Shown: in pieces, positions 2,239-23,142 of the stretch
How positions within the stretch are numbered: position 1 is the stretch's first letter
Layout of the letters: each line of letters begins with the position of its first letter
Assembly: GCA_937860055.1 (NCBI GenBank)
Contig: CALMBO010000009.1
Location: forward strand, 54,414 to 86,413
DNA from: an uncultured Verrucomicrobiota bacterium
GTDB lineage: Bacteria > Verrucomicrobiota > Kiritimatiellia > CAIQIC01 > Lenti-01
Direction: 5' to 3'
Length of the DNA stretch: 32,000 bases
Position numbers and translations under genes: made by a program
The notes under the pieces: model-generated
Seen by the model: only the letters and a program-made list of their open reading frames with translations
The model's database searches: none
Told to the model about the DNA's origin: nothing

Positions 2239-5205
2239 ATGGATCGACCACGTTTCACGCTTCCCGTCCTTTTTGCCTTGGTCCTCCTGCTGGGGGGGGG
2301 ATTGTTCGTCCTGCGCGATCGCATTCCCGAAGCCTTTTCGCTGTCCAATTCGGTTCCGTTCGAGAAATTGTCCAAGGCGGCCCGTTGCGCCGACGGGTCC
2401 TTCGCCGTCGTGTTCGATTCCAACAAGCGCATCGCACGGGTGGGGGCCGATGGTTCCCTGATCTATCTCATTCCGGCCCGCAATGCCCCGGAAAAGGGGT
2501 TTTTCTTTGCCAACGAGATCGCGTTCGACCCCGGCGGCCACCTGTATGTGGCGAGCACGTATCTCGACACCGGCACGCTGGCGGTCAACCGCGAGGCGAT
2601 CGTGCGCTTTTCCCCGGAGGGCCGCTGGGAAGGCGTCCTCTACTCGCTCGAACACGACCCCGACCAGTATGTCGACAACATCGGACTGATCCGTTCCCTC
2701 CAGTGGACTCCCGACGGCCTGCGCTTCTGCCTTGCGCGCGAAGAAGGGATCCACAGCCTGCGGGTCGATCCCGCCGACGGGACGAAGGTCGACGAAACCA
2801 TCACGCCGTTCCCTGAGGGGGCGGCCAGCGTGATCTACGCCACGATTTCCGCAGACGGCCGCGAACTGGCGTATTCCACCGGCGCCACGGAGATCTACAC
2901 GGCGGTTCCCGGCCAGACCCCCTCCAAGCGCTATGACGGGCGCGCGCTACCCGACGAGGTGTACTCGATTCCTTCGGATCTCCATTACCAGGACGGCGAA
3001 CTGTATTTTTCCGATCTGGGCCGCGACGCCATCATGCGGCTGGCGGGGGAAAACGCCGCCGAGCCCCTGTTCGACCGGGCCATCGCCCTTGCGCATGGCT
3101 ACGAAGATGCCTTTTTCGAATGCAAGGGGTTCCAGCTGGAACCCGACCACCTGACCCTGCCCAACAACGGCAAGGTGGTCTATTTCCCGACCGGAGGATC
3201 CGCCGCCATCCGCACCTTCGACCGTGCCCGGGGCACGGCCGCGCTCTGGGGCCGTCGCGCCGCCCTCTGGTCGCAAATGGGATTGTTCGCGCTCCTGTCG
3301 GTCGCGCTGGTTTCGCTGGCGATCCGCCATGCCTCGCCCGACCGGCGGCGTCTGGCGAAGCAGGTCGCGCTGGTGGCCATGATGCTGGGCACGGCGGTGG
3401 GCATCACGACCTACATGATCTTCAACAACATGAACCGGCGGCTGGCGGAGGAGGCCCGGAACAACCTGCGGGGATATCTGGCGGTCGGACAGCTGGTGGT
3501 GGATGCCGAGGCCGTGGACCGGATCCAGCATGTGAAGCACTACATGAACGAGGATTACCAGGCCGTGCTGCGGCAGCTGCGGCAGACGATCACCCGGGAG
3601 GGCGAAATCGCCTCGGGCACCTATTCGGGCGTCTACAAGATCTTCGGCGACAAGCTTTCGGCGCTGGCATACCACGACGGCCTGCGGGGCATCTTCTATC
3701 CGTACGATTACCAGTACGGCCAATCCATCTACGCGCAGGTGGCCCAGACCGGCCAGCCGTACGTTGGCGAAGTCGTGGACATCTATGGAGTCTGGCTCAA
3801 CGGCGTGATTCCGCTGGTGAGCACGAACGGCGCCACCGTCGGCCTGCTCGAAGTGGGCGTGGATCAATCCGCCCAGCGCGAAGCCAACCGCGAGCTGTTC
3901 AAGAGCACGCTGATCGATCTGGCCATGGTCCTGTTCGTGCTGCTGTTCATCTTCTTCGAAATCGGGTTCTTCAGTTCCCATGTGCTGGACCAGGCCGGAC
4001 CGGATGACGAGAGGGCCGGGCAGCGCTACGACGAAGGGGCGTTGCGGTTCGTTTCATTCCTGGCCATCACCGGTGTTTTCCTTTCCGCCTCCTTCCTGCC
4101 GTTGTACATCAAATCGCTGGCCCCGGCTGTCGGCCGCGTCCCCGACCTGATCATCGGCCTGCCGATGGTGGTTGAAACGCTCTGCGGGGCGCTGATCGCG
4201 CTGCTCTATGGCCATGTCCGGATCCGCATGGGCATCAAGACGGATGTCGTGCTGGCCTGCCTGGTGATCATGGCGGGGATGGTGGCCACGGGGCTGGCCA
4301 CGACGTTCGACCGCCTGGTCGTCGGCCGGGTGCTGGTGGGCATGGGCATGGGCCTCCTGATGATCGCGTTCCGGACCTATTTCCTGATCGAGAAAAACGA
4401 AACCCGGAAGGAATCGGGCATCATCGCGCTGACCGCCGGAGTGGTGGCGGGCATCAATACCGGATCGGTTTCCGGCGGCATGCTGGCCGACCGGGTCGGC
4501 ATGAAGCCGGTGTTCCTGATCCAGGCGGCGCTGCTGGTGCTGGCGGCGGCGGCCGCACTGGTGCTGGTCCGCAACCGCCGGCGCGGGAAGCCGGCCGTCG
4601 CGGCCGCCGTCGCCCTTTCGCCGTGGACATTCCTGCGCGACCGCGCGGTCTGGAGCTTTTTCGTCTTTGTCTTCCTGCCGGTCACAGCCTGCGGCCTTTT
4701 CCTGGGATTCCTCTTCCCGCTGTTTGCCGAAGCGCAGGGCCACACGATCAACGAGATCAGCCTGGCCTTCATGCTGTTCGGCGCCGCCAGCGTCTATCTG
4801 GGGCCGTCCCTGACGCGCCTGACCACGGTCCTGTTCGGGGCGCGGCGCGCCATGCCCGTCGGGGCGCTGGTCATGACCGGCGCGCTGCTGCTGTTCGCCT
4901 ATTTCCAGACCCTCGCGGCCGCCTACGCCACCATCATCCTCTTTGGCCTGACGGAAAGCCTGCTCTTCAACCAGGGGATGTCCTACTATTCCTCGCTGCC
5001 GGGAGTCCGCCGCTTCGGGGAAGACAAGGCGATGGGGGTCTACAATGTCTTCGAATCCGGCGGGGAGGCGCTGGGGCCGATGGCCTTCGGGCTGGCCGCG
5101 AGCATGAGCCTGGGCGCCGGCATCGCCGCCATCGCCGCCGTGCTCGGCGCCTGCGCCGTGATCTTCTGGGCGATGGGCCCGCGGCCGGGAGGGGGGCGTC
5201 CATGA
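2239..5205 (+). CDS. Multidomain membrane protein: N-terminal TM, periplasmic beta-propeller-like repeats, 2 TM, Cache/PDC-like domain, TM, then a 12-TM MFS transporter domain
   Basis: Repeated blade-like segments occur between hydrophobic helices (ADGSFAVVFD, FDPGGHLYVAS, WTPDGLRF, ISADGRELAYS, YQDGELYFSD). A second extracytoplasmic block ends in VVDIYGVWLNGVIPLVSTNGATVGLLEVGVD, a Cache-type terminal strand pattern. The C-terminal ~430 aa contain 12 hydrophobic helices with MFS-like loops. The TM parity (1+2+1 before the MFS) places both sensor domains outside and the MFS N-terminus inside. Confidence 0.75.
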   Translation: MDRPRFTLPVLFALVLLLGGGLFVLRDRIPEAFSLSNSVPFEKLSKAARCADGSFAVVFDSNKRIARVGADGSLIYLIPARNAPEKGFFFANEIAFDPGGHLYVASTYLDTGTLAVNREAIVRFSPEGRWEGVLYSLEHDPDQYVDNIGLIRSLQWTPDGLRFCLAREEGIHSLRVDPADGTKVDETITPFPEGAASVIYATISADGRELAYSTGATEIYTAVPGQTPSKRYDGRALPDEVYSIPSDLHYQDGELYFSDLGRDAIMRLAGENAAEPLFDRAIALAHGYEDAFFECKGFQLEPDHLTLPNNGKVVYFPTGGSAAIRTFDRARGTAALWGRRAALWSQMGLFALLSVALVSLAIRHASPDRRRLAKQVALVAMMLGTAVGITTYMIFNNMNRRLAEEARNNLRGYLAVGQLVVDAEAVDRIQHVKHYMNEDYQAVLRQLRQTITREGEIASGTYSGVYKIFGDKLSALAYHDGLRGIFYPYDYQYGQSIYAQVAQTGQPYVGEVVDIYGVWLNGVIPLVSTNGATVGLLEVGVDQSAQREANRELFKSTLIDLAMVLFVLLFIFFEIGFFSSHVLDQAGPDDERAGQRYDEGALRFVSFLAITGVFLSASFLPLYIKSLAPAVGRVPDLIIGLPMVVETLCGALIALLYGHVRIRMGIKTDVVLACLVIMAGMVATGLATTFDRLVVGRVLVGMGMGLLMIAFRTYFLIEKNETRKESGIIALTAGVVAGINTGSVSGGMLADRVGMKPVFLIQAALLVLAAAAALVLVRNRRRGKPAVAAAVALSPWTFLRDRAVWSFFVFVFLPVTACGLFLGFLFPLFAEAQGHTINEISLAFMLFGAASVYLGPSLTRLTTVLFGARRAMPVGALVMTGALLLFAYFQTLAAAYATIILFGLTESLLFNQGMSYYSSLPGVRRFGEDKAMGVYNVFESGGEALGPMAFGLAASMSLGAGIAAIAAVLGACAVIFWAMGPRPGGGRP

Positions 5206-13962: not shown

Positions 13963-15759
13963 CTAGAGGTAGTCCTCGGCCTGGAGGCGCGCGAGGTAGT
14001 CCTTGGGATCGACGAGCGTCTGCTGGGCGGGCTCGGGAGCCATGTCCACGTGCTTGCCGAGTTTGGTGCGCTTGATCCAGAACTGGGGCTGCTGCTCGGC
14101 GAGGGCGATGCTCTTGGAGTGCTTCACGATGCGGTCGAGGGCGGAGATGTATTCGCCGAAGAAGATGCCGGCGATCGCGGTGACGGAACGCTGGGCGACC
14201 TTGTCGGTGAACATGGAGCGGGTATTGAGGCTTGCCTGCATGTAGTCGTCGCGCGCGCGCAGGATCTGCTGGGCGATCTCCTGGATGTTGTCCTTGTCCG
14301 CGTCGAGGGAGTCGATGACGAGCTTGAAGATGTGGAGTGCGTTCTCGTAGAGGCGGAAGAGGGTGTCGAAGGATTCCTTGTCCACGATGGCCTCGGGGAC
14401 CTTCTGGCGGCGCAGGGACAGGTCGCAGATGGATTCGATGTGGTCGCCGATGCGTTCAAGGTCGACCATGCAGCGGTCGATGTGCTGCAGCAGGACGGCC
14501 TGGCGCTTGGAGAGGTAGCGTCGGGTGAGGCTGTCGAGGTATTCCTTCATGGCGAGCTTGACGTCGTTGACGACCTGCTCGTTGAGCTTGATGGCCTGGA
14601 TGTCCTGCGGGGTGTGGGCGAAGAGGATGGTCTGGCCGGAAAGCCGCAGGCTCTTGAAGCAGATCTTGGCGACGCGCTGCAGTTCGCGGATGCTGGCGCA
14701 GACGGCCTGTTCGGGGTATTCCAGGAGCTTGTCGTCGAGATAGCTGGGTTCGGGTTCGGGCTTGCGGCTGCGGAAAATGCGGGTGATGAGCCGGGCATAG
14801 GGGACGGAGAAGGGGAGGACGAGGAAGGCCGCGACGACCATGACCGTGGTGTGGAGGTTCGCGGACTGGCGCACCACCAGCTCGGCGAGCTGGGTGGAGG
14901 CCGCATCGGCGGGGATGGGCGTGATCTTCTCCAGGAACCAGACCAGCGGCTCCTTGAGCAGGGAGGCGAGGGTGACGTTGAAGATGTTGAAGATCAGGTG
15001 GGCATAGGCGGAGCGCTTGGCGTTCATGCTGGTGCCGATGCTGCCCAGCAGGGCGGTGGCGCAGGTGCCGATGTGCGCGCCGAAGATGATCGGCATGGTC
15101 TGCTCGACGCTGGTGAGCACGCCGGCTTGCGCCAGCGCGAAAGCCATGCCGATGGTGGCGCCGCTGCTCTGGATGATGGAGGTGAGCAGCGTGGCCATCA
15201 GGATGCCGAGCACCAGGCCCCGGGTCGTTTCGCCGCTGATGGACGCCATGATGGGCTTGAGCAGGTCGCGGTACGGCTGGATGGCGCCGCTCATGAGGTT
15301 CATGCCAAGGAACAGCAGGCCGAAACCCATGATGGACAAGCCGATTTTTTTCACCTTCGGGTTCTTGGCGATCATGCTCAGGATGAAGCCGATGGTGACG
15401 GCGAAGAGCGCGTATTTGCCGAGGCTGAACGAAATCGCCTGCATGGAGACGGTGGTGCCGATGTTGGCGCCGAGGATGACCGGAATGCTCTGGGTCAACG
15501 ACATCAGGCCGGCGTTGATGAAGCCGACGACCATGACGGTGGTGGCGCTGCTGTGGACAAGGGTCGCGATGAGGGTGCCCAGTCCGATGCCCGACAGCTT
15601 GCGGGTGGTCATGACCGAGAGGACGCTGCGGAGTTTCTGGCCGGCGGCTTCGCGCAGGCCGTCCGACATGATGTTCATGCCGAAAATAAACAGCGCCAGG
15701 CCGCCGAGGACCTGGAAGGCCAAGAAGAACAGGGCGCCGGGAGTCATCAGTGGATCCAT
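13963..15759 (-). CDS. Na+/phosphate cotransporter family protein with C-terminal PhoU-like domains
   Basis: LALFIFGMNIMSDGLREAAGQKLRSVL...HSSATTVMVVGFINAGLMSL...ILGANIGTT and its internal repeat (SSGATIGMAFALAQAGVL...IFGAHIGTC) are the NptA/Na_Pi_cotrans duplication. The tail carries PhoU-type helices (DRCMVDLERIGDHIESI). Confidence 0.9.
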   Translation of the reverse strand: MDPLMTPGALFFLAFQVLGGLALFIFGMNIMSDGLREAAGQKLRSVLSVMTTRKLSGIGLGTLIATLVHSSATTVMVVGFINAGLMSLTQSIPVILGANIGTTVSMQAISFSLGKYALFAVTIGFILSMIAKNPKVKKIGLSIMGFGLLFLGMNLMSGAIQPYRDLLKPIMASISGETTRGLVLGILMATLLTSIIQSSGATIGMAFALAQAGVLTSVEQTMPIIFGAHIGTCATALLGSIGTSMNAKRSAYAHLIFNIFNVTLASLLKEPLVWFLEKITPIPADAASTQLAELVVRQSANLHTTVMVVAAFLVLPFSVPYARLITRIFRSRKPEPEPSYLDDKLLEYPEQAVCASIRELQRVAKICFKSLRLSGQTILFAHTPQDIQAIKLNEQVVNDVKLAMKEYLDSLTRRYLSKRQAVLLQHIDRCMVDLERIGDHIESICDLSLRRQKVPEAIVDKESFDTLFRLYENALHIFKLVIDSLDADKDNIQEIAQQILRARDDYMQASLNTRSMFTDKVAQRSVTAIAGIFFGEYISALDRIVKHSKSIALAEQQPQFWIKRTKLGKHVDMAPEPAQQTLVDPKDYLARLQAEDYL

Positions 15760-15909
15760 CTCATTTCTCCTGAATCAAAACCAATATCTTCCGAAACAGT
15801 GGGCCGGGTTGTCAATCTCGAGGGAAGCCGAACGGTAGAAAACCCGGTCCGGAGGGAGGGGGCAGAGGAAGCGCTTTACGTGGGGGGGAGGGCGCCGCCC
15901 GGGGCGCGC

Positions 15910-16608
15910 CTAGGCCGTGTAGACCATCCAGAGGCCGGCGAGGAGGACCAGGACGCCGCAGGTTTTCTTGAGGATCAAGGCGCCCCGCGAGGCCTCGTTC
16001 CAGTCCAGGTAGTGCTGGACGCTTTCGGTGAAGGTGCCGGCAAGGACGATGACGGCGCAGTGGCCGATGCCGTAGGCCAGCAGGAGGAGGATGCCGTAGG
16101 CCATCCGGGAATCGGCCAGCCGGAAGGTGACGGCAAGCATGGGCGCCATGAAGGCAAACGTGCAGGGACCCAGTGCGACGCCGAACACCAGGCCGAGGAG
16201 GAAGGCCGCGAGGCGGCCGCGCTTCTTCATTTTGACCTGTCCCGGACCGGTGAACGGCATCGGGACAATTCCCAGCAGATGCAGGCCGACGAACAGGAAA
16301 ATCGCGGCCACGAAATAATTGCCATAGGCGCCGACGTCGCCCAGCATGCGCCCGGCCGTTGCCGTGACGGCGCCGATGAGTCCGATGGTGACCAAGATGC
16401 CCAGCGCGAACAGCAGTGCGATCTGGAAGGCGCGTTTCGTGGAGATCTGTCCTTGTTCGTCGATGAATCCGACGATGAGCGGGATGCTGGCGAGATGGCA
16501 GGGGCTGAGCAGGATGCTCAAGAGGCCCCAGGCAAACGCGGCGGAGAGTGCGACGGCGGGGCCGCCCTCGATGGCTCGGGTCAGGGCGGTGAAAAGTTGC
16601 TCAAGCAT
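15910..16608 (-). CDS. ccdA: CcdA/DsbD-family transmembrane thiol-disulfide electron transporter
   Basis: There are two membrane-embedded Cys motifs (LLSPCHLASIPL and ALGPCTFAFMAPM) in a ~6-TM, 232-aa protein. The start is 3 nt after the acr3 stop. Confidence 0.8.
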   Translation of the reverse strand: MLEQLFTALTRAIEGGPAVALSAAFAWGLLSILLSPCHLASIPLIVGFIDEQGQISTKRAFQIALLFALGILVTIGLIGAVTATAGRMLGDVGAYGNYFVAAIFLFVGLHLLGIVPMPFTGPGQVKMKKRGRLAAFLLGLVFGVALGPCTFAFMAPMLAVTFRLADSRMAYGILLLLAYGIGHCAVIVLAGTFTESVQHYLDWNEASRGALILKKTCGVLVLLAGLWMVYTA

Positions 16609-16611
16609 CGG

Positions 16612-17790
16612 TCAAGTCTCCGGTTGCGGGAACCATCGCCGGGTGCGGGTGCAGATCTTCACCAGCCCGAGCATGACGGGCACCTCGATCAGGACGCCCA
16701 CCACGGTGGCCAAGGCGGCCCCCGAGCTGAGGCCGAAGAGCATCGTGGCCGTGGCGATGGCGACTTCGAAATGGTTGGAGGCACCGATCATCGCGGCGGG
16801 CGCGGCGTCGGCATAGGAAAGCTTCAGGACGCGGGCGGCGGCGTAGCTGAGCCAGAAGATCAGGAGGGTCTGGAGGAACAGCGGGATCGCGATCCAGAGG
16901 ATCGTCAGGGGGTTGGCCAGGATGACCTCGCCCTTGAAGCTGAAGAGGAGGACGAGGGTGGTCAGCAGGGCGATGATCGTGACGGGGGTGAGGACATGCA
17001 GGAACTTTTCCCTGAACCAGGCCTCGCCCTTCGCCGCGAGGATCCACTTGCGCGAATAATAGCCGGCGACGAGCGGCAGGGCCACGTAGATGGCGATGGA
17101 AAGCAGCAGGGCCTGCCACGGGACGGGGAGGCGGCCGACGCCCAGCAGGAATCCGCCGAGCGGGCCGTAGAGCAGGAGCATCGTCAGGGAGTTGATGGCC
17201 ACCATCACGAGGGTGAGGCCGTCGTTGCCGCGCGCGAGATAGCCCCAGACCAGCACCATGGCCGTGCAGGGGGCGATGCCCAGCAGGATGCACCCGGCCA
17301 GATAGCTGCGCCACAGGGGCACCTGAAGCATTTTGACGCCTTCGGCCAGCACCACCGTGCCCGCGCCGTGCTCCGCGCCCACGGGCAGGTCGAGACCGAA
17401 GGGCATCTTGACGAGATCGACCGCATCCGTTCCGATGAACGTCCGGAAAACGAATCCAAGGAAGAAATACGCGATGGCGTACATCGTGAACGGCTTGATG
17501 GCCCAGTTGATGAACAGCGTCAGCCACACGGGCTTGCCGCTCTTGCCCGCCTGGATCACCGAGGCGAAATCGATCTTCACCATGATGGGATACATCATGA
17601 AGAACAGGCAGACGGCGATGGGGATGGAGACCACCGGCGCGCCGTTGACGAAGATGGCCATGCCATCGAGGGTCTTGGCGAAATCCGGCGCGAGCTTGCC
17701 GAGGAGAATGCCGCCGGCGATGCACAGCGCAACCCAAAGGGTCAGGTAGCGTTCGAAGGGGTTGGTCAGCTTGCGATTTTCTCCGTTCAT
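16612..17790 (-). CDS. acr3: ACR3-family arsenite efflux transporter
   Basis: [22 protein letters not shown]...[15 protein letters not shown]...WAIKPFTMY is the characteristic ACR3 N-terminal region. The ATG at 17790 overlaps the arsM TGA (ATGA). Confidence 0.9.
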
Positions 17791-18587
17791 GGCCGTGCTC
17801 CTTTGATGGCCTCGATGGTGGCGGAGCGGACGAACTTTTCCGCGCCGCTTCCCGGGAACCAATCCTTGATGAAGATTTTGCTTTGCTCGTTCACGCGGAT
17901 GAGGATTCCGGAAAAGCCGGCGGCTCTGAGCATGCGCTTCGTTTGGGAAACGGTGGCGGATCCGGCAATGCAGCCGCTATGGGCCTGGAGGTTCCGTTTT
18001 ACCTTGGCCGGGATGGAGGCGACGGCCACGACATCGGAAATGGCCAGGCGCCCCCCCGCTTTCAGGATCCGGAAGGCTTCGGCGAAGACCTGCGGCTTGT
18101 CGGGCGACAGGTTGATGACACAGTTGGAGAGGATAACGTCCGCCGTCGCGTCCGCGACGGGCAGGTGCTCGATTTCGCCGAGGCGGAAATCCACGTTCCG
18201 GACCTTGCCCCTCACCGCGTTTTCGCGCGCCTTGTGGACCATTTCGGGTGTCATGTCCACGCCGATGACATGGCCCTTCTTGCCGACGCGGCGGGCGGCG
18301 AGGAAGCAGTCGAATCCCCCTCCGCATCCGAGATCGACCACGGTTTCGCCGGGCCGGAGATCCGCGATGGCCTGCGGGTTGCCGCATCCAAGGCCCATGT
18401 TCGCCCCCCCTGGAACGGCGGCGAGTTCTTCCTGCGAATAGCCGATCTGGGCCGAAGCGTCGGGGTTGAGCAAGGCGTCGGGCTGGCAGCAACTGCTGGA
18501 ACAGCCGCACGCGCCGCCGGATTTTGCGATGCCGGCGTAGCGGTTGCGGATATGTTGGCGGACCCGGTCTTTCTGGGGGGAAGGCAT
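17787..18587 (-). CDS. arsM: Arsenite S-adenosylmethionine methyltransferase
   Basis: [10 protein letters not shown], the SAM motif [36 protein letters not shown] and HSGCIAG provide the conserved ArsM cysteines and Rossmann motifs. The N-terminus is Cys-rich ([11 protein letters not shown]). Confidence 0.9.
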
Positions 18588-18590
18588 GAT

Positions 18591-19036
<446 letters not shown>

Positions 19037-19040
<4 letters not shown>

Positions 19041-19609
19041 TTGAACTCGAACCCCAGTTCCTTCCATTTCGCGAGGATGTCTTCCTTCGGGAAGAATCCT
19101 TCATGGCGGAAGAGCTCCTTGCCTTCGGCGTCGAAGAATATCTGCAGGGGAATCACGCGGACGCTGTATGTCTCGCCCGCGCTTTCCTCTTTCCAGACGT
19201 CGATGAAATCCACCTGGAGTTGGCCGGAGTAGGCGGCGCGGAGTTCATCGAGGATGGGCGCCATCATCTTGCACGGAATGCATTTGTCCGCTCCCAGCTC
19301 GAGGAGGCGCGGAAGGGCGGACGGCTTCTCAACGCCCGGGGCGGTTGCGGCGCCTTCCCGCGCCGGAATTTGTTCAACGGCCGCCAGCCGATTCTGTTTG
19401 AGGGTGAATACGGCGGCCAAAGCCAGAAGCAAGGCGGCGAGGATCGCGCCGGTCTGCCATTTCATCTTGGTTTTTCCTTTCCGTGCTCGGAGCCATTGGG
19501 TGGCGGCATATGACGCGAAGAAGATGCCCAGCACGACGAGCAGAGAAGCGAAATCGCTGCCGCCGCCCGGCGGGCAGCAGGCGGGAAAGGATTCCAATTC
19601 GTTGGTCAT
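19037..19609 (-). CDS. Membrane-anchored thioredoxin-fold protein (TlpA/ResA-like, CIPC active site) with an N-terminal vicinal-Cys tail
   Basis: Two hydrophobic helices are separated by the basic loop RARKGKTKMK. A Trx fold follows with LGADKCIPCKMMAP and a cis-Pro region VRVIPLQIFF. GAGG lies 8 nt upstream of the ATG at 19609, which is 13 nt after the upstream stop. The N-terminus reads MTNELESFPACCPPGGG. Confidence 0.75.
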
Positions 19610-19622
19610 CGCGGCGCCTCGT

Positions 19623-19856
19623 TCAGGCCAGATGCTTTTGGATTTCGCCGGGGCTCAAGACCTTGCCGACGCTTTTGACTGTGCCATCCACGACGAGGGC
19701 CGGGGTGGACATGACGCCGAACTTCATGATTTCCATGATTTTTTCGACCTTTTCGATTTTTGCCTCGATCCCGGCGGTTTTTGCGGCCGCTTCGGCGTTG
19801 GCGAACAGTTGCTTGCACTTCGGGCAGCCGGTTCCGAGGATTTGAATATGTTTCAT
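19623..19856 (-). CDS. Small thioredoxin-family protein (redox-active disulfide protein 2 / Thioredoxin_3 type)
   Basis: MKHIQILGTGCPKCKQL...STPALVVDGTVKSVGKV; 77 aa with a CPKC motif. This is the classic small partner of COG0701 permeases. Confidence 0.85.
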   Translation of the reverse strand: MKHIQILGTGCPKCKQLFANAEAAAKTAGIEAKIEKVEKIMEIMKFGVMSTPALVVDGTVKSVGKVLSPGEIQKHLA

Positions 19857-19871
19857 GGCATTCCTTTCTCG

Positions 19872-21251
19872 TCAGGAAACAATGGCGCCGAACATCCATC
19901 CGGACAGCGTCGCCATGACAACGACCAGGCCCACGTAGGTCAGGGTTTTCCGGGGGCCGAGGATGGAGTTGATCACCAGCATGTTGGGGAGGGAGAGGGC
20001 GGGGCCGGCGAGGAGGAGGGCGAGGGCGGGCCCTTGGCCCATGCCGCTGTCGATCAAGCCGCGCAGGATGGGGACTTCGGTCAGCGTGGCGAAGTACATC
20101 CAGGCGCCGGCGAAGGCGGCGAAGAAATTGGTCCACAGCGGCCAGAGGAAGGAAAGCCAGGCCGGCGCTTCCGTTTCGGGGCGGCCGAGGAGGGAGAGCA
20201 GGGCCTGCGGCGAGTCGCCGACGAGCGCCTGGATCCAGAGATTCGGGACGATGCCGGCATCGGCATGGTCGGGGCTGCCGAGGAAGAACCCGGCGGCGAG
20301 CACGCCCATGAACAGGAGGGGGAGGATTTGCTTGGCGAAGCCCCACGACTGGTCGCGCCAGTCCTTGAGTTCCGCCCCGCCGAAGAACGTCAGGGCCGCC
20401 AGCCCGGCGGAACCTGCCGCGAAGGCCGCCACGGGGTATTGCGGAAGAGCGATGCCCAGCGCCAGGGCGGGGGCGGCGGCCAGGAGAACATGGGCCGGCT
20501 TGACCTGGAAGAACCGCCACAGACAGACGCCCATCAGGGCGGCGAACAGCGAGGTGAGGATCCATTTGGCCTGGAAGATTGCAAACCAAATGCCGGAGGT
20601 TTCCTGCGGTCTGGCCCAGTTGGCGAAGACGAGAATGCCGACCATGGAGAGAAAGTAGAGCGCGACTTGCCAGAGCGGGCGATCGTCCTTCTCGTCGTCG
20701 CCGAGGAACACTTCCTGGGGGTTGGCGGCCTTGGCTCGTTCCTCCTTCAGGAAAATCAAATGCATGAGCAGGCCGATGACGACGCTGAAGGCGATGGCGC
20801 CCGCGGCGCGGGCGGCGCCGAGCGGGAATCCCAGCACGCGGGCGGTCAGCACGATGGCCAGCACGTTGATGGCCGGGCCGGAATAGAGGAAAGCGATGGC
20901 GGGGCCGAGGCCCGCGCCGCGGAAGTAGATGCCGCCGAAGAGGGGCAGGACGGTGCACGAGCAGACCGCCAGGATCGTGCCCGAAACGGAGGCCACGGAG
21001 TAGGAAAGCCATTTCGGCGCCTGGGGGCCGAAGTATTTCATCACCGCGTTCTGGCGGACGAAGACGCCGATGGCCCCGGCGATGAAGAACGCCGGCACAA
21101 GGCAGAGCAGCACGTGTTCCCGGGCGTACCACTTGGCGAGATGCAGGGCTTCGAGGAGCGCCCCTTGGAAGCGGAGGTGCTCCATCGGCAGGAAGTAGAG
21201 GCCGAGGAGGGCGGCCAGAAGGCCGAGGAGGATTTTCAGTTCTTTGTTCAT
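19872..21251 (-). CDS. COG0701/ArsP_1-family permease (ArsP-like)
   Basis: REHVLLCLVPAFFIAGAIGVFV...SVSGTILAVCSCTVLPLFGGIY..GAGLGPAIAFLYSGPAINVLAI is the family signature, including the CxC pair. The protein is multi-TM and 459 aa. Confidence 0.85.
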   Translation of the reverse strand: MNKELKILLGLLAALLGLYFLPMEHLRFQGALLEALHLAKWYAREHVLLCLVPAFFIAGAIGVFVRQNAVMKYFGPQAPKWLSYSVASVSGTILAVCSCTVLPLFGGIYFRGAGLGPAIAFLYSGPAINVLAIVLTARVLGFPLGAARAAGAIAFSVVIGLLMHLIFLKEERAKAANPQEVFLGDDEKDDRPLWQVALYFLSMVGILVFANWARPQETSGIWFAIFQAKWILTSLFAALMGVCLWRFFQVKPAHVLLAAAPALALGIALPQYPVAAFAAGSAGLAALTFFGGAELKDWRDQSWGFAKQILPLLFMGVLAAGFFLGSPDHADAGIVPNLWIQALVGDSPQALLSLLGRPETEAPAWLSFLWPLWTNFFAAFAGAWMYFATLTEVPILRGLIDSGMGQGPALALLLAGPALSLPNMLVINSILGPRKTLTYVGLVVVMATLSGWMFGAIVS

Positions 21252-21261
21252 GGCGGCCCGG

Positions 21262-21570
21262 TCAGACGGAGCCCTCTTGGCGCTTCTTGACGGATTTCAG
21301 GGCTTCGAAGGTGCAGCCAAGCGCTTGCAGCATGCAAGGGCAGGCGAGGTGGTGGATGACCCGTTTTCCGGCGCGCCGTTCAGTGACGATTCCGACTTTC
21401 TTGAGTTTCTCCAAATGGCGGGAAATGGTCGGCTGGCTCGTCGCGGCGAGACTGCGGAGGTCGTTGACGCAGCAATCGCCGCGGCCCAACGCGTCCAGCA
21501 TGAGGACGCGGGTGGGGTGGGCGAGGGCCTTCAGGAGATCGGCGCGGGCTTTGGCTTGGGCGGTGTTCAT
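21262..21570 (-). CDS. arsR: ArsR/SmtB-family metalloregulator
   Basis: ADLLKALAHPTRVLMLDALGRGDCCVNDLRSLAATSQPTISRHLEKLKKVGIV is the winged-HTH region with Cys in the alpha3 site. It corresponds to the last 102 codons of the 665-aa track ORF. Confidence 0.9.
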   Translation of the reverse strand: MNTAQAKARADLLKALAHPTRVLMLDALGRGDCCVNDLRSLAATSQPTISRHLEKLKKVGIVTERRAGKRVIHHLACPCMLQALGCTFEALKSVKKRQEGSV

Positions 21571-21578
21571 AGATTTAA

Positions 21579-21606
21579 GATATACACATATGTGTATAAG
21601 TGTCAA
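21579..21606 (-). promoter_or_regulatory. Putative sigma70-type ars promoter (TTGACA, 16 nt, TATATC) ending about 8 nt before the arsR ATG
   Basis: The minus strand reads cTTGACActtatacacatatgtgTATATCttaaatctATG. No Shine-Dalgarno sequence lies between the -10 element and the ATG. Confidence 0.5.
21581..21598. promoter_or_regulatory. 18-bp perfect palindrome TATACACATATGTGTATA, candidate ArsR operator
   Basis: Self-complementarity was verified base by base. The sequence is AT-rich in a GC-rich genome and spans the -35/-10 spacer and the -10 element of the putative ars promoter. Confidence 0.6.
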
Positions 21607-21714
21607 GGAGGGCGGGGGACGGTTCGCGGTTGATTTGCGGAGGGGCTCTGGCAACATAGGGATGGCCCAGCGCGCGCCGGCCGGCGCGTCGCCGGTCCAC
21701 CAAGGAGCAACGAC

Positions 21715-23142
21715 ATGAAGACGCTGAAAGCCTGTCTGGTTTCCCTGTTCATTCCCCTGTGCGCGCCGGCGGCAACGATGCCGGAGGCGATGCTGATCCT
21801 GGACGCGTCGGGCAGCATGATGGGGGCGGCGGGGGGGCAGACCAAGATCGATGCGGCCAAAGCGGTGCTGGCCCAGGTGGTGCCGGCCGTCGCGCCGGAA
21901 GTGAAGATCGGCCTGGCCGCCTATGGCCACCGCCGGCCGAACGATTGCGCGGACATCGAAATTCTCGTCCCGCCCGGCAACGAAGACCGCGCCGCCGTGC
22001 TGGCCCGCATCGCCGCGATGCAGCCGCGGGGGATGACCCCCATTTCGGCGGCGGTGACGCAAGTGGCCGATCTGCTGAAAGGGCGCGACGCGGAAACCAC
22101 GATCGTGCTCGTGAGCGACGGCCAGGAGACCTGCGGCGGCGATCCGTGCGCGACGGTGAAGGCGCTGAAAGCCGCCGGCGTGAAATTCGTGATGCATGTG
22201 GTGGGATTCGACGTGACGGAGGAGGACAAGGCGCAGTTGGCGTGCATCGCGGAGGCCGGCGGCGGCAGGTATTTCGGCGCGTCGGACGCGGCGGGTTTGC
22301 TGGCGGCGATGCAGGCCGTGAACCAGGAAATCGCGCAGAAGGTGGAACAGGCCAAGACGCAGGTGGTGCAGCAGGCGACCGGCCTGGGCAAGCTGCGGAT
22401 CGCGGTTCCGGAAAGCGCCCTGCAAAGCCTGAAGGGGTTCCGCATCGTCCGCAAGAGCAGCGGCAAGGTGGTGAAGGAGGGCGAACTTCCGGCGGCGGAT
22501 TCGACGCATCCGCTGATGTCGGGCGACTACTCGCTGACGCTGCTGTTCGCGAATCCGAACTACCAGCCGCCGACGGAAATGCCGCTGGGCGATTTCACGG
22601 TGGTGAAGGGCGGCACGGCCGCGATGGAGCTGGGAGCGCTGGTCTTCAACATCGCCGAGGAGCTGAAGGAGGCCCCGGTGGAGGCGATCATCGTTTCGGA
22701 GAGCGGCGCGGACCGCGAGGTGCTGCGGATCCTGCCGCACGGGAACGACTATTATCTCTTCAAGCCCAAGGCACTGCTGCCGGGCACCTGCGATGTGTCG
22801 TTCCTCTACCGCCGCTGCGAGAAACCTTCGAAAGTCGCAGCGGGGCTCGGGGTGGCGGCGGGCCAGGAAACCGTTCTGACGCTGGATTCGGGGATCCTCG
22901 TCACGCGGCCGGGGGAAACCCGGGTGCGCGGCTGGGACCTGCTGCCGGCGGGCGGCGGCGAACCCGTGCTGTCCATCCGGCGGGGATTCGACAACGAGGA
23001 GCCGCTCTGGCGCCCGTTCCCGGTGCCGCCGGGGACGTACGACCTGATCCTGAAGGTCAGCGACATGGACGAGGACCTCCCCGCCGGAGAAGGCATCGCG
23101 ATCGAAGCGGGCAGGACGGTGCGGTTCGACACCGGCCTGTAG
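21715..23142 (+). CDS. Secreted von Willebrand factor A (VWA) domain protein with C-terminal beta-rich region
   Basis: Signal peptide MKTLKACLVSLFIPLCAPAA, MIDAS-like LILDASGSM and IVLVSDGQETCGG. AAGGAG lies 8 nt upstream of the ATG. Confidence 0.8.
   Translation: MKTLKACLVSLFIPLCAPAATMPEAMLILDASGSMMGAAGGQTKIDAAKAVLAQVVPAVAPEVKIGLAAYGHRRPNDCADIEILVPPGNEDRAAVLARIAAMQPRGMTPISAAVTQVADLLKGRDAETTIVLVSDGQETCGGDPCATVKALKAAGVKFVMHVVGFDVTEEDKAQLACIAEAGGGRYFGASDAAGLLAAMQAVNQEIAQKVEQAKTQVVQQATGLGKLRIAVPESALQSLKGFRIVRKSSGKVVKEGELPAADSTHPLMSGDYSLTLLFANPNYQPPTEMPLGDFTVVKGGTAAMELGALVFNIAEELKEAPVEAIIVSESGADREVLRILPHGNDYYLFKPKALLPGTCDVSFLYRRCEKPSKVAAGLGVAAGQETVLTLDSGILVTRPGETRVRGWDLLPAGGGEPVLSIRRGFDNEEPLWRPFPVPPGTYDLILKVSDMDEDLPAGEGIAIEAGRTVRFDTGL

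Follow-up and report, generated by a model that had tools for sequence, protein, structure and literature searches.

An ars operon of an uncultured Kiritimatiellia bacterium contains a conserved thioredoxin–CcdA cassette that may form an extracytoplasmic thiol-reduction arm

Genes for CcdA, for thioredoxin and for a 'redox-active disulfide protein 2' have been recorded inside arsenic resistance (ars) operons in 8 instances from 7 organisms, usually together with arsC, and it was speculated that they play a role with ArsC, transmembrane electron flow being thought less likely (Castillo and Saier, 2010, PMC2963123). A second precedent is the ArsEFG set: in passages of PMC9144182, ArsG is counted among the efflux transporters shown to carry organoarsenicals (citing Chen, Zhang and Rosen, 2019), and the proteins shown to confer organoarsenical resistance include ArsE and ArsF. 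In NCBIfam, ArsF is named 'nitrophenyl compound nitroreductase subunit' and ArsG 'aromatic aminobenzylarsenical efflux permease', while ArsE is a family of very small thioredoxins (mini-thioredoxins); these product names and PMC9144182 are the sources of the roles cited here for the three proteins. PMC2963123 and the passing citation of ArsEFG in PMC9144182 were the only literature on the combination that we found. Here we analyse an eight-gene ars operon that lies in a stretch of 32,000 nucleotides (nt; 'the window') from contig CALMBO010000009.1 of an uncultured Verrucomicrobiota bacterium, and that encodes a CcdA-like protein and a membrane thioredoxin next to ArsR, an ArsP-like permease, a mini-thioredoxin, ArsC, ArsM and ACR3. 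The initial annotation of this DNA knew of no described function for the combination; the same gene types are, however, on record in the ars operons of PMC2963123, and NCBIfam carries models for ArsE, ArsF and ArsG.

Our reading, to which we assign a probability of roughly 0.6, is that the eight genes make up one ArsR-controlled operon, built from a five-gene thiol cassette and an inserted arsC-arsM-acr3 block, in which a CcdA relay serves an exported thioredoxin. The argument begins with the company that the ccdA-like gene keeps. Genomes, one for each species, were scanned with a 14-sequence alignment, which gave at least 598 matches, and gene neighbourhoods were taken from the best 80, which are 62–85% identical and come from more than 10 phyla, with carriers in Kiritimatiellia, Verrucomicrobiota, several orders of Planctomycetota, Lentisphaerae, Hydrogenedentota, Armatimonadota, Chlamydiota, Thermodesulfobacteriota and others. 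The open reading frames (ORFs) of these 80 loci were searched with the eight window proteins. A homologue of the membrane thioredoxin was found on the same strand within 3 kb upstream of ccdA in 74 of 76 loci, and abutted it in 56 of the 76; near ccdA there was also a mini-thioredoxin gene (56/59 loci), a gene for a PF03773 permease with a cysteine triad (50/51) and an ArsR-family gene (42/46). Where at least 6 kb was available on both sides, any of acr3, arsC and arsM accompanied ccdA in 26 of 40 loci and all three in nine. Typical genomes have only one or a few ars loci in several megabases, and this co-occurrence should therefore be far above that of a random 20-kb stretch.

The gene order of the window was found again in relatives L002/L008 (two labels for one contig), L089, L090 and L091 and is therefore not a chance arrangement, while in L004–L006 arsR, permease, mini-thioredoxin, thioredoxin and ccdA follow one another, thioredoxin and ccdA overlapping by 4 nt, with acr3 present and arsC and arsM absent. 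Taken together, these two groups of loci suggest that the five-gene cassette is the ancestral unit; in the lineage of the window, arsC-arsM-acr3 appears to have been inserted between the thioredoxin gene and ccdA. The thioredoxin–CcdA pair is no addition particular to this operon but part of a conserved five-gene cassette.

The same neighbourhoods bear on the possibility that the cassette deals with some other metal or compound that binds thiols (for instance Hg, Cu, Zn or Cd) and has no more than a loose link to arsenic, the ars genes standing beside it through the clustering of resistance genes. ArsR/SmtB regulators sense many metals, the permease has its best NCBIfam matches, both below cutoff, in SO_0444 (Cu/Zn efflux) and SaoE, 19 loci have the thioredoxin fused to a MerB-like domain, and RND/CzcB-type efflux genes adjoin the pair in the Sulfuricella denitrificans plasmid pSCD, L002 and L007. 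We nevertheless consider this quite unlikely in view of the ars genes in 26 of 40 loci, their interleaving within the same-strand cassette at differing positions in 10 loci, the ATGA overlaps by which arsC and acr3 of the window are joined to cassette or ars genes, and the naming of the relatives ArsE, ArsF and ArsG for arsenicals.

Natural fusions provide in silico support for the CcdA-like protein and the membrane thioredoxin being a coupled pair. When the representatives of 50%-identity clusters were searched exhaustively, 2384 relatives were found, several of which are 372–396 amino acids (aa) long, and in five of these (P0241, P0246, P0248, P0249 and P0262) the CcdA-like domain comes after an N-terminal signal anchor and a thioredoxin domain. 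P0241 shares 39% identity with the window thioredoxin over residues 50–189 (E 1e-35) and 61% with the CcdA-like protein of the window. As far as can be predicted, the layout of these fusions (basic N-terminus, thioredoxin domain, and a six-helix core for which an outside N-terminus is predicted) would fit only an extracytoplasmic thioredoxin. In 21 loci the gene abutting ccdA encodes a thioredoxin protein that starts with a signal-peptide-like sequence (read by eye), followed by an N-terminal domain of ~220 aa and a C-terminal thioredoxin domain. A pair that is 56% identical to that of the window is found on S. denitrificans plasmid pSCD (L001; NC_022358.1, 54786–55894), directly after an RND efflux operon, and a few kb upstream there are genes for ArsM, a thioredoxin and ArsC; mobile DNA therefore carries the pair as well, in the company of other resistance genes.

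The anatomy of the membrane thioredoxin points in the same direction. A Cys-Cys pair (residues 11–12) is followed by a first transmembrane helix (TM1, 19–37), a loop (38–51), a second helix (TM2, 52–70), a linker and the thioredoxin domain, with a CIPC motif at residues 110–113 (nt 19282–19271). The TM1–TM2 loop, which contains the invariant Met49, has 6 Lys/Arg and no Asp/Glu, and the N-terminal tail has no Lys/Arg; by the positive-inside rule the loop would be cytoplasmic, and the cysteine pair and the thioredoxin domain would both lie outside. With this loop, the signal-peptide forms and the fusion forms in its favour, the proposed location of the thioredoxin domain outside the cytoplasm is very probably right. 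In an opposing scheme, an idea raised by Castillo and Saier (PMC2963123), the domain would be cytoplasmic and act as the reductant of a thioredoxin-coupled ArsC, CcdA being unrelated or merely adjacent, and it is true that arsC overlaps the thioredoxin stop codon by ATGA and that ArsC carries the cysteine triad of thioredoxin-coupled enzymes. Such a role is very unlikely given the predicted topology and the existence of the exported and fused forms; moreover, many cassettes have the thioredoxin–CcdA pair without arsC, which is present in only 15 of the 40 loci, and the soluble mini-thioredoxin is a more obvious partner for ArsC.

The exported thioredoxin had been labelled as TlpA/ResA-type, and here the assignment had to be changed. 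It scores 12.6 bits on the NCBIfam TlpA model as against 230, its only Pfam matches are Thioredoxin and Thioredoxin_2, and its matches in a PDB profile search are classic thioredoxins, so that Pfam, NCBIfam and PDB profiles all place the domain in the classic thioredoxin type. On the ArsF model (NF040494, cutoff 60 bits) it gave no match at E ≤ 1. Eleven of the 80 loci carry an ArsF-family lipoprotein as an extra member of the cassette, and the ArsF family and that of the window thioredoxin are therefore distinct. The N-terminal half is kept among full-length homologues, and has a nearly invariant Cys-Cys pair at residues 11–12; between lineages the pair varies (CC, CPC, CSC or CGC). In L091, the first 49 residues correspond to a separate 49-aa ORF (4501–4650), and the anchored thioredoxin, of 135 aa, whose start it overlaps begins at the equivalent of Met49; in the window gene, therefore, a small peptide made of the cysteine pair and a transmembrane helix (CC-TM) is fused in frame to an anchored thioredoxin. 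No Pfam family matched the 48-aa CC-TM peptide. A vicinal cysteine pair at the outer face of the membrane recalls metal hand-off sites.

The CcdA-like protein has six predicted transmembrane helices with Lys/Arg-rich odd loops (8 vs 4) and two Pro-Cys motifs, around Cys37 (SPCH, TM1) and Cys149 (GPCTF, TM4), that are at least 90% conserved in 69 diverse representatives, Pro36 being invariant in the 69 sequences. Its structural model (predicted local distance difference test score, pLDDT, of 90.6) finds as its best PDB fold match the CcdA of Thermus thermophilus (5VKV) with a probability of 1.00 and a TM-score of 0.51–0.52 over 210 columns at 28% identity, albeit with an E value of only 0.057, and every other fold match has a TM-score of 0.35 or less. 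On the strength of this model the CcdA fold can be considered confirmed, and in PF02683 score, helix and Pro-Cys layout and fold the protein agrees with the CcdA/DsbD_TM electron transporters. A phmmer search against PDB chains returned no relevant relative, sequence similarity to the solved CcdA being too low to detect. No NCBIfam model reaches its cutoff for the protein, the best being ArsG (NF040495; 53.9 bits vs 200); its relatives score 47–57 bits on the ArsG model or fail to match, compared to 292.9 bits for an annotated ArsG, and at the sequence level the protein belongs to a distinct subfamily.

These scores are relevant to two further explanations. Since its annotation in the source records is that of cytochrome c biogenesis, ccdA and the thioredoxin gene might be housekeeping genes of cytochrome c maturation that came to lie in the operon by chance. 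We regard this as extremely unlikely: in more than 10 phyla the association with ArsR, permease and mini-thioredoxin holds almost without exception, the subfamily is distinct and far in sequence from the solved CcdA as well as below every NCBIfam cutoff, and the gene tables examined (L002/L008, L004–L007, L089–L091), in which no systematic search was made, showed no gene of the ccs, res or ccm type beside it. Neither this explanation nor that of a cytoplasmic thioredoxin serving ArsC is readily compatible with the data. The other explanation follows the published ArsEFG roles, in that the mini-thioredoxin and the membrane thioredoxin would be subunits of an organoarsenical reductase, for example one acting on the nitro groups of roxarsone- or nitarsone-type compounds, and the CcdA-like protein an ArsG-type efflux permease for the product. 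ArsG is the best NCBIfam match of the CcdA-like protein, the mini-thioredoxin is in the MTH895/ArsE family, organoarsenical transport by ArsG and resistance by ArsE and ArsF are listed in the passages of PMC9144182 cited above, and a Prevotella ars locus has the same architecture (ArsF, ArsG, ArsE-family protein, PF03773 permease, ArsC and ACR3). We hold it to be unlikely all the same: the ArsG score is well below cutoff, identity to the Prevotella ArsG is 30% over 155 aa, the thioredoxin lacks a match to the ArsF model, and a dedicated permease is already present in 50 of 51 cassettes. Furthermore, obligate pairing, fusion to an exported thioredoxin and two Pro-Cys motifs are hallmarks of CcdA/DsbD proteins, and a permease needs none of them.

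The remaining products fit an arsenic operon (Table 1). ArsM, ACR3 and ArsR each pass NCBIfam cutoffs, and ArsR has a vicinal pair, Cys33-Cys34 (GDCCVNDL), as well as C77, C79 and C86. ArsC is of the low-molecular-weight phosphatase type with the P-loop CTGNSCRS, and C13, C85 and C92 correspond to the Cys10/82/89 triad. This pattern is that of the thioredoxin-coupled (pI258-type) enzymes and would agree with the type first proposed, although the protein misses the equivalog cutoff of TIGR02691 (147.8 vs 174.3 bits). The permease appears to be an ArsP-type PF03773 protein by its Pfam match and its intramembrane CxC pair; Cys50, Cys97 and Cys99 (AVCSCTV) are kept in 51–54 of 54 permeases of related cassettes, the pair C97-S-C99 being invariant (54/54). 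The mini-thioredoxin is cytoplasmic, with a CPKC motif at residues 11–14 and neither a signal peptide nor a transmembrane helix; it shares 42% identity with the ArsE-family protein of Prevotella and is, from its family match, a true member of the MTH895/ArsE family.

Table 1. Coordinates of the operon, its putative control elements and its neighbours in the window.
Feature	Position	Strand	Remarks
arsR	21570..21262	-	102 aa; ArsR/SmtB-family repressor; HTH_5 8e-13; NF033788 79 bits vs cutoff 55
PF03773 (ArsP_1/DUF318) permease	21251..19872	-	459 aa; ArsP_1 2e-64, 218 bits
mini-thioredoxin	19856..19623	-	77 aa; Thioredoxin_3 2e-27, 95 bits; TIGR00412 106 bits vs cutoff 62
membrane thioredoxin	19609..19037	-	190 aa; Pfam Thioredoxin 1e-10
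CC-TM segment (residues 1-48 of membrane thioredoxin)	19466-19609	-	
arsC	19040..18591	-	149 aa; LMWPc 6e-23, 82 bits
arsM	18587..17787	-	266 aa; arsenite S-adenosylmethionine methyltransferase; NF008823 345 bits vs cutoff 263
acr3	17790..16612	-	392 aa; arsenite efflux permease; TIGR00832 373.5 bits vs cutoff 282.8
ccdA-like (DsbD_TM)	16608..15910	-	232 aa; PF02683 44.4 bits vs gathering score 27.1
promoter-like site, sigma-70-like	21606..21577	-	TTGACA, 18-nt spacer, TATCTT; upstream of arsR
perfect 18-bp palindrome TATACACATATGTGTATA	21581..21598		overlaps -10 hexamer and spacer
Na/Pi cotransporter gene with PhoU domain	13963-15759	-	150 nt downstream of ccdA
von Willebrand factor A domain gene	21715-23142	+	divergent, upstream of arsR

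Reading of the sequence recovered all eight minus-strand ORFs (21570..15910) where they had been annotated, with a significant Pfam or NCBIfam match for each product and with junctions, from arsR to ccdA, of 10, 15, 13, -4 (ATGA), 3, -4 (ATGA) and 3 nt, so that the eight-gene ars operon stands in order and spacing. The further claim of a single transcript is consistent with the sequence: the junctions are tight, the promoter-like site upstream of arsR is the sole sigma-70-like match within 15500–21900, and a terminator scan found no convincing terminator between the eight genes or between ccdA and the next gene. Terminator-like matches within the operon (12 vs 5.4 ± 2.9 expected) lie inside coding sequence and have weak T-runs, and were not taken as functional. 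The palindrome TATACACATATGTGTATA is a candidate ArsR operator; outside the window its core was found upstream of arsR in L002/L008 only, that is, on one contig. The arsR ATG (21570) is 7 nt past the -10 hexamer, and the mRNA is therefore probably leaderless.

The genes flanking the operon recur as well. In L004–L006, L089, L090 and L091, too, the cassette is followed by Na/Pi cotransporter genes, in some cases with a fused domain like phosphate-binding proteins, which may reflect a link to the discrimination of arsenate from phosphate or plain synteny, and the von Willebrand factor A domain gene is in the same place in L002, L089, L090 and L091. Some of the loci that share the window order (L002/L008, L089, L090 and L091) have in addition a CMD/AhpD-like or a DGC-domain gene. 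Across the survey, the cassette includes a DGC-domain protein of ~125 aa in 28 loci (among L008–L087), a TrmO_N-like protein in nine and a CMD/AhpD-like protein of 70–77 aa with a CxxC motif in six.

In the mechanism that we propose, a trivalent arsenical would release ArsR from the promoter-overlapping palindrome and one transcript would be made. Arsenate would be reduced by ArsC, and the resulting arsenite exported by Acr3 or methylated by ArsM, while the permease would export a trivalent thiol-binding arsenical. A cytoplasmic thioredoxin, most simply the co-encoded mini-thioredoxin, would donate reducing equivalents to the CcdA-like protein, which would pass them across the membrane to the exported thioredoxin, and the latter would keep reduced those extracytoplasmic thiols that bind trivalent arsenicals. 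We favour this role, with the outward-facing cysteine triad of the permease and the N-terminal cysteine pair of the thioredoxin itself as the first, hypothetical targets, because no other partner accompanies the relay as constantly as the permease does. Of the dedicated extracytoplasmic thiol-reduction arm first suggested for this operon, the coupled pair, the exported thioredoxin and the CcdA fold thus have support in silico, while the TlpA/ResA type and an undescribed combination are not supported.

Several points weigh against the relay. The target is a guess, and the AlphaFold model of the membrane thioredoxin is poor (pLDDT 60.6) and was excluded from the fold search. The pair of mini-thioredoxin and permease could work without CcdA, and the mini-thioredoxin may serve ArsC or the permease instead. 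ArsG, the nearest named relative of the CcdA-like protein, is called an efflux permease by NCBIfam and not an electron carrier. By their record titles, most carriers seem to be metagenome-assembled genomes of uncultured bacteria from anaerobic or sediment habitats, many of them anoxic (such as digesters, sediments and groundwater), and the need for a reductase that protects the periplasm is less obvious there. Finally, the survey covers the 80 closest of at least 598 matches.

If the relay operates as proposed, it would add a third arm to the arsenic resistance of many bacteria besides reduction-efflux and methylation, namely reducing power supplied outside the membrane. It would also provide a testable function for a cassette of at least about 600 species-level genomes, explain why PF03773 permeases often travel with small thioredoxins and call for a re-examination of the ArsG 'efflux permease' label. 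In 19 of the 80 loci, an exported anchored thioredoxin is fused C-terminally to a Cys-rich domain of ~280 aa (e.g. L009 1497–2825, L025 7592–9004 and L026 8584–9969), which matches Pfam MerB (alkylmercury lyase) at 67.5 bits (E 1.4e-18) and has a faint NosL-like part; this fusion is absent from the window. It is possibly an extracytoplasmic carbon-metal(loid) lyase of ArsR-controlled cassettes, and the fusions of the relatives are candidates for enzymes that cleave carbon-arsenic or carbon-metal bonds anaerobically; the known C-As lyase ArsI requires oxygen. A broader generalization is tentative and rather doubtful at present: CcdA-like proteins of ars operons, possibly including ArsG, would be electron conduits of an arsenic-inducible extracytoplasmic thiol arm and not efflux permeases, the arm of the window servicing the Cys-triad permease or capturing trivalent arsenicals through its exported CxxC and CC cysteines, and that of the MerB-like fusions driving an oxygen-independent carbon-metalloid lyase outside the cytoplasm. 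The breadth of the cassette, an anatomy at odds with the ArsG 'efflux permease' label and the MerB-like fusions add to the importance of the question.

In light of the systems described before, the locus has both close parallels and clear differences. Akin to CcdA with ResA, StoA or CcmG, and to DsbD and ScsB, it combines a six-helix DsbD_TM core and two Pro-Cys motifs with an exported partner of thioredoxin fold, and fused thioredoxin–transmembrane forms exist for DsbD and ScsB as they do here. In the fusions of the window family, however, the partner is a classic thioredoxin located N-terminal to the transmembrane core; the genes around the window pair are those of ArsR, permease and ars proteins instead of cytochrome c or Dsb genes, and a dedicated mini-thioredoxin is co-encoded. 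The permease is presumably comparable to the methylarsenite permease ArsP of Campylobacter jejuni, with which it shares PF03773 and a CxC within a membrane helix, but with its 459 aa it has an insertion of ~125 aa and a third conserved cysteine (C50), and permeases of this type are, unlike ArsP, always paired with a mini-thioredoxin and the relay.

The closest parallel is ArsEFG. The row of Prevotella nigrescens (NZ_CP072340.1) comprises a winged-helix regulator, ArsF (146 aa, with an apparent signal peptide and a CATC motif; 131.8 bits on the ArsF model), ArsG (235 aa, including the motifs SPCP and FCPT), an ArsE-family protein of 77 aa, a permease of family PF03773, ArsC and ACR3. Both systems thus have a 77-aa mini-thioredoxin, a gene for an exported CxxC protein of thioredoxin fold directly upstream of a ~230-aa two-Cys DsbD_TM gene, and an ArsR-type operon context with PF03773 permease, ArsC and ACR3, genes 3, 4 and 8 of the window having their counterparts in the triad. 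They differ in gene order, in the thioredoxin, which in the window is classic, anchored, equipped with an N-terminal cysteine pair and outside the ArsF family, and in the CcdA-like protein, with its low ArsG score and limited identity to the Prevotella ArsG. The published roles of ArsEFG are those of nitroreductase subunits and an efflux permease, whereas the anatomy of the window proteins points to a transmembrane thiol relay. Castillo and Saier had a short list of ars operons without topology, fusions, a defined cassette or a link to the permease (PMC2963123); a relay was anticipated in the literature, and it is supported here by comparative evidence. The system of the window is best filed as a thiol triad similar to ArsEFG, from which it differs in the exported thioredoxin and in the distinct subfamily of its CcdA.

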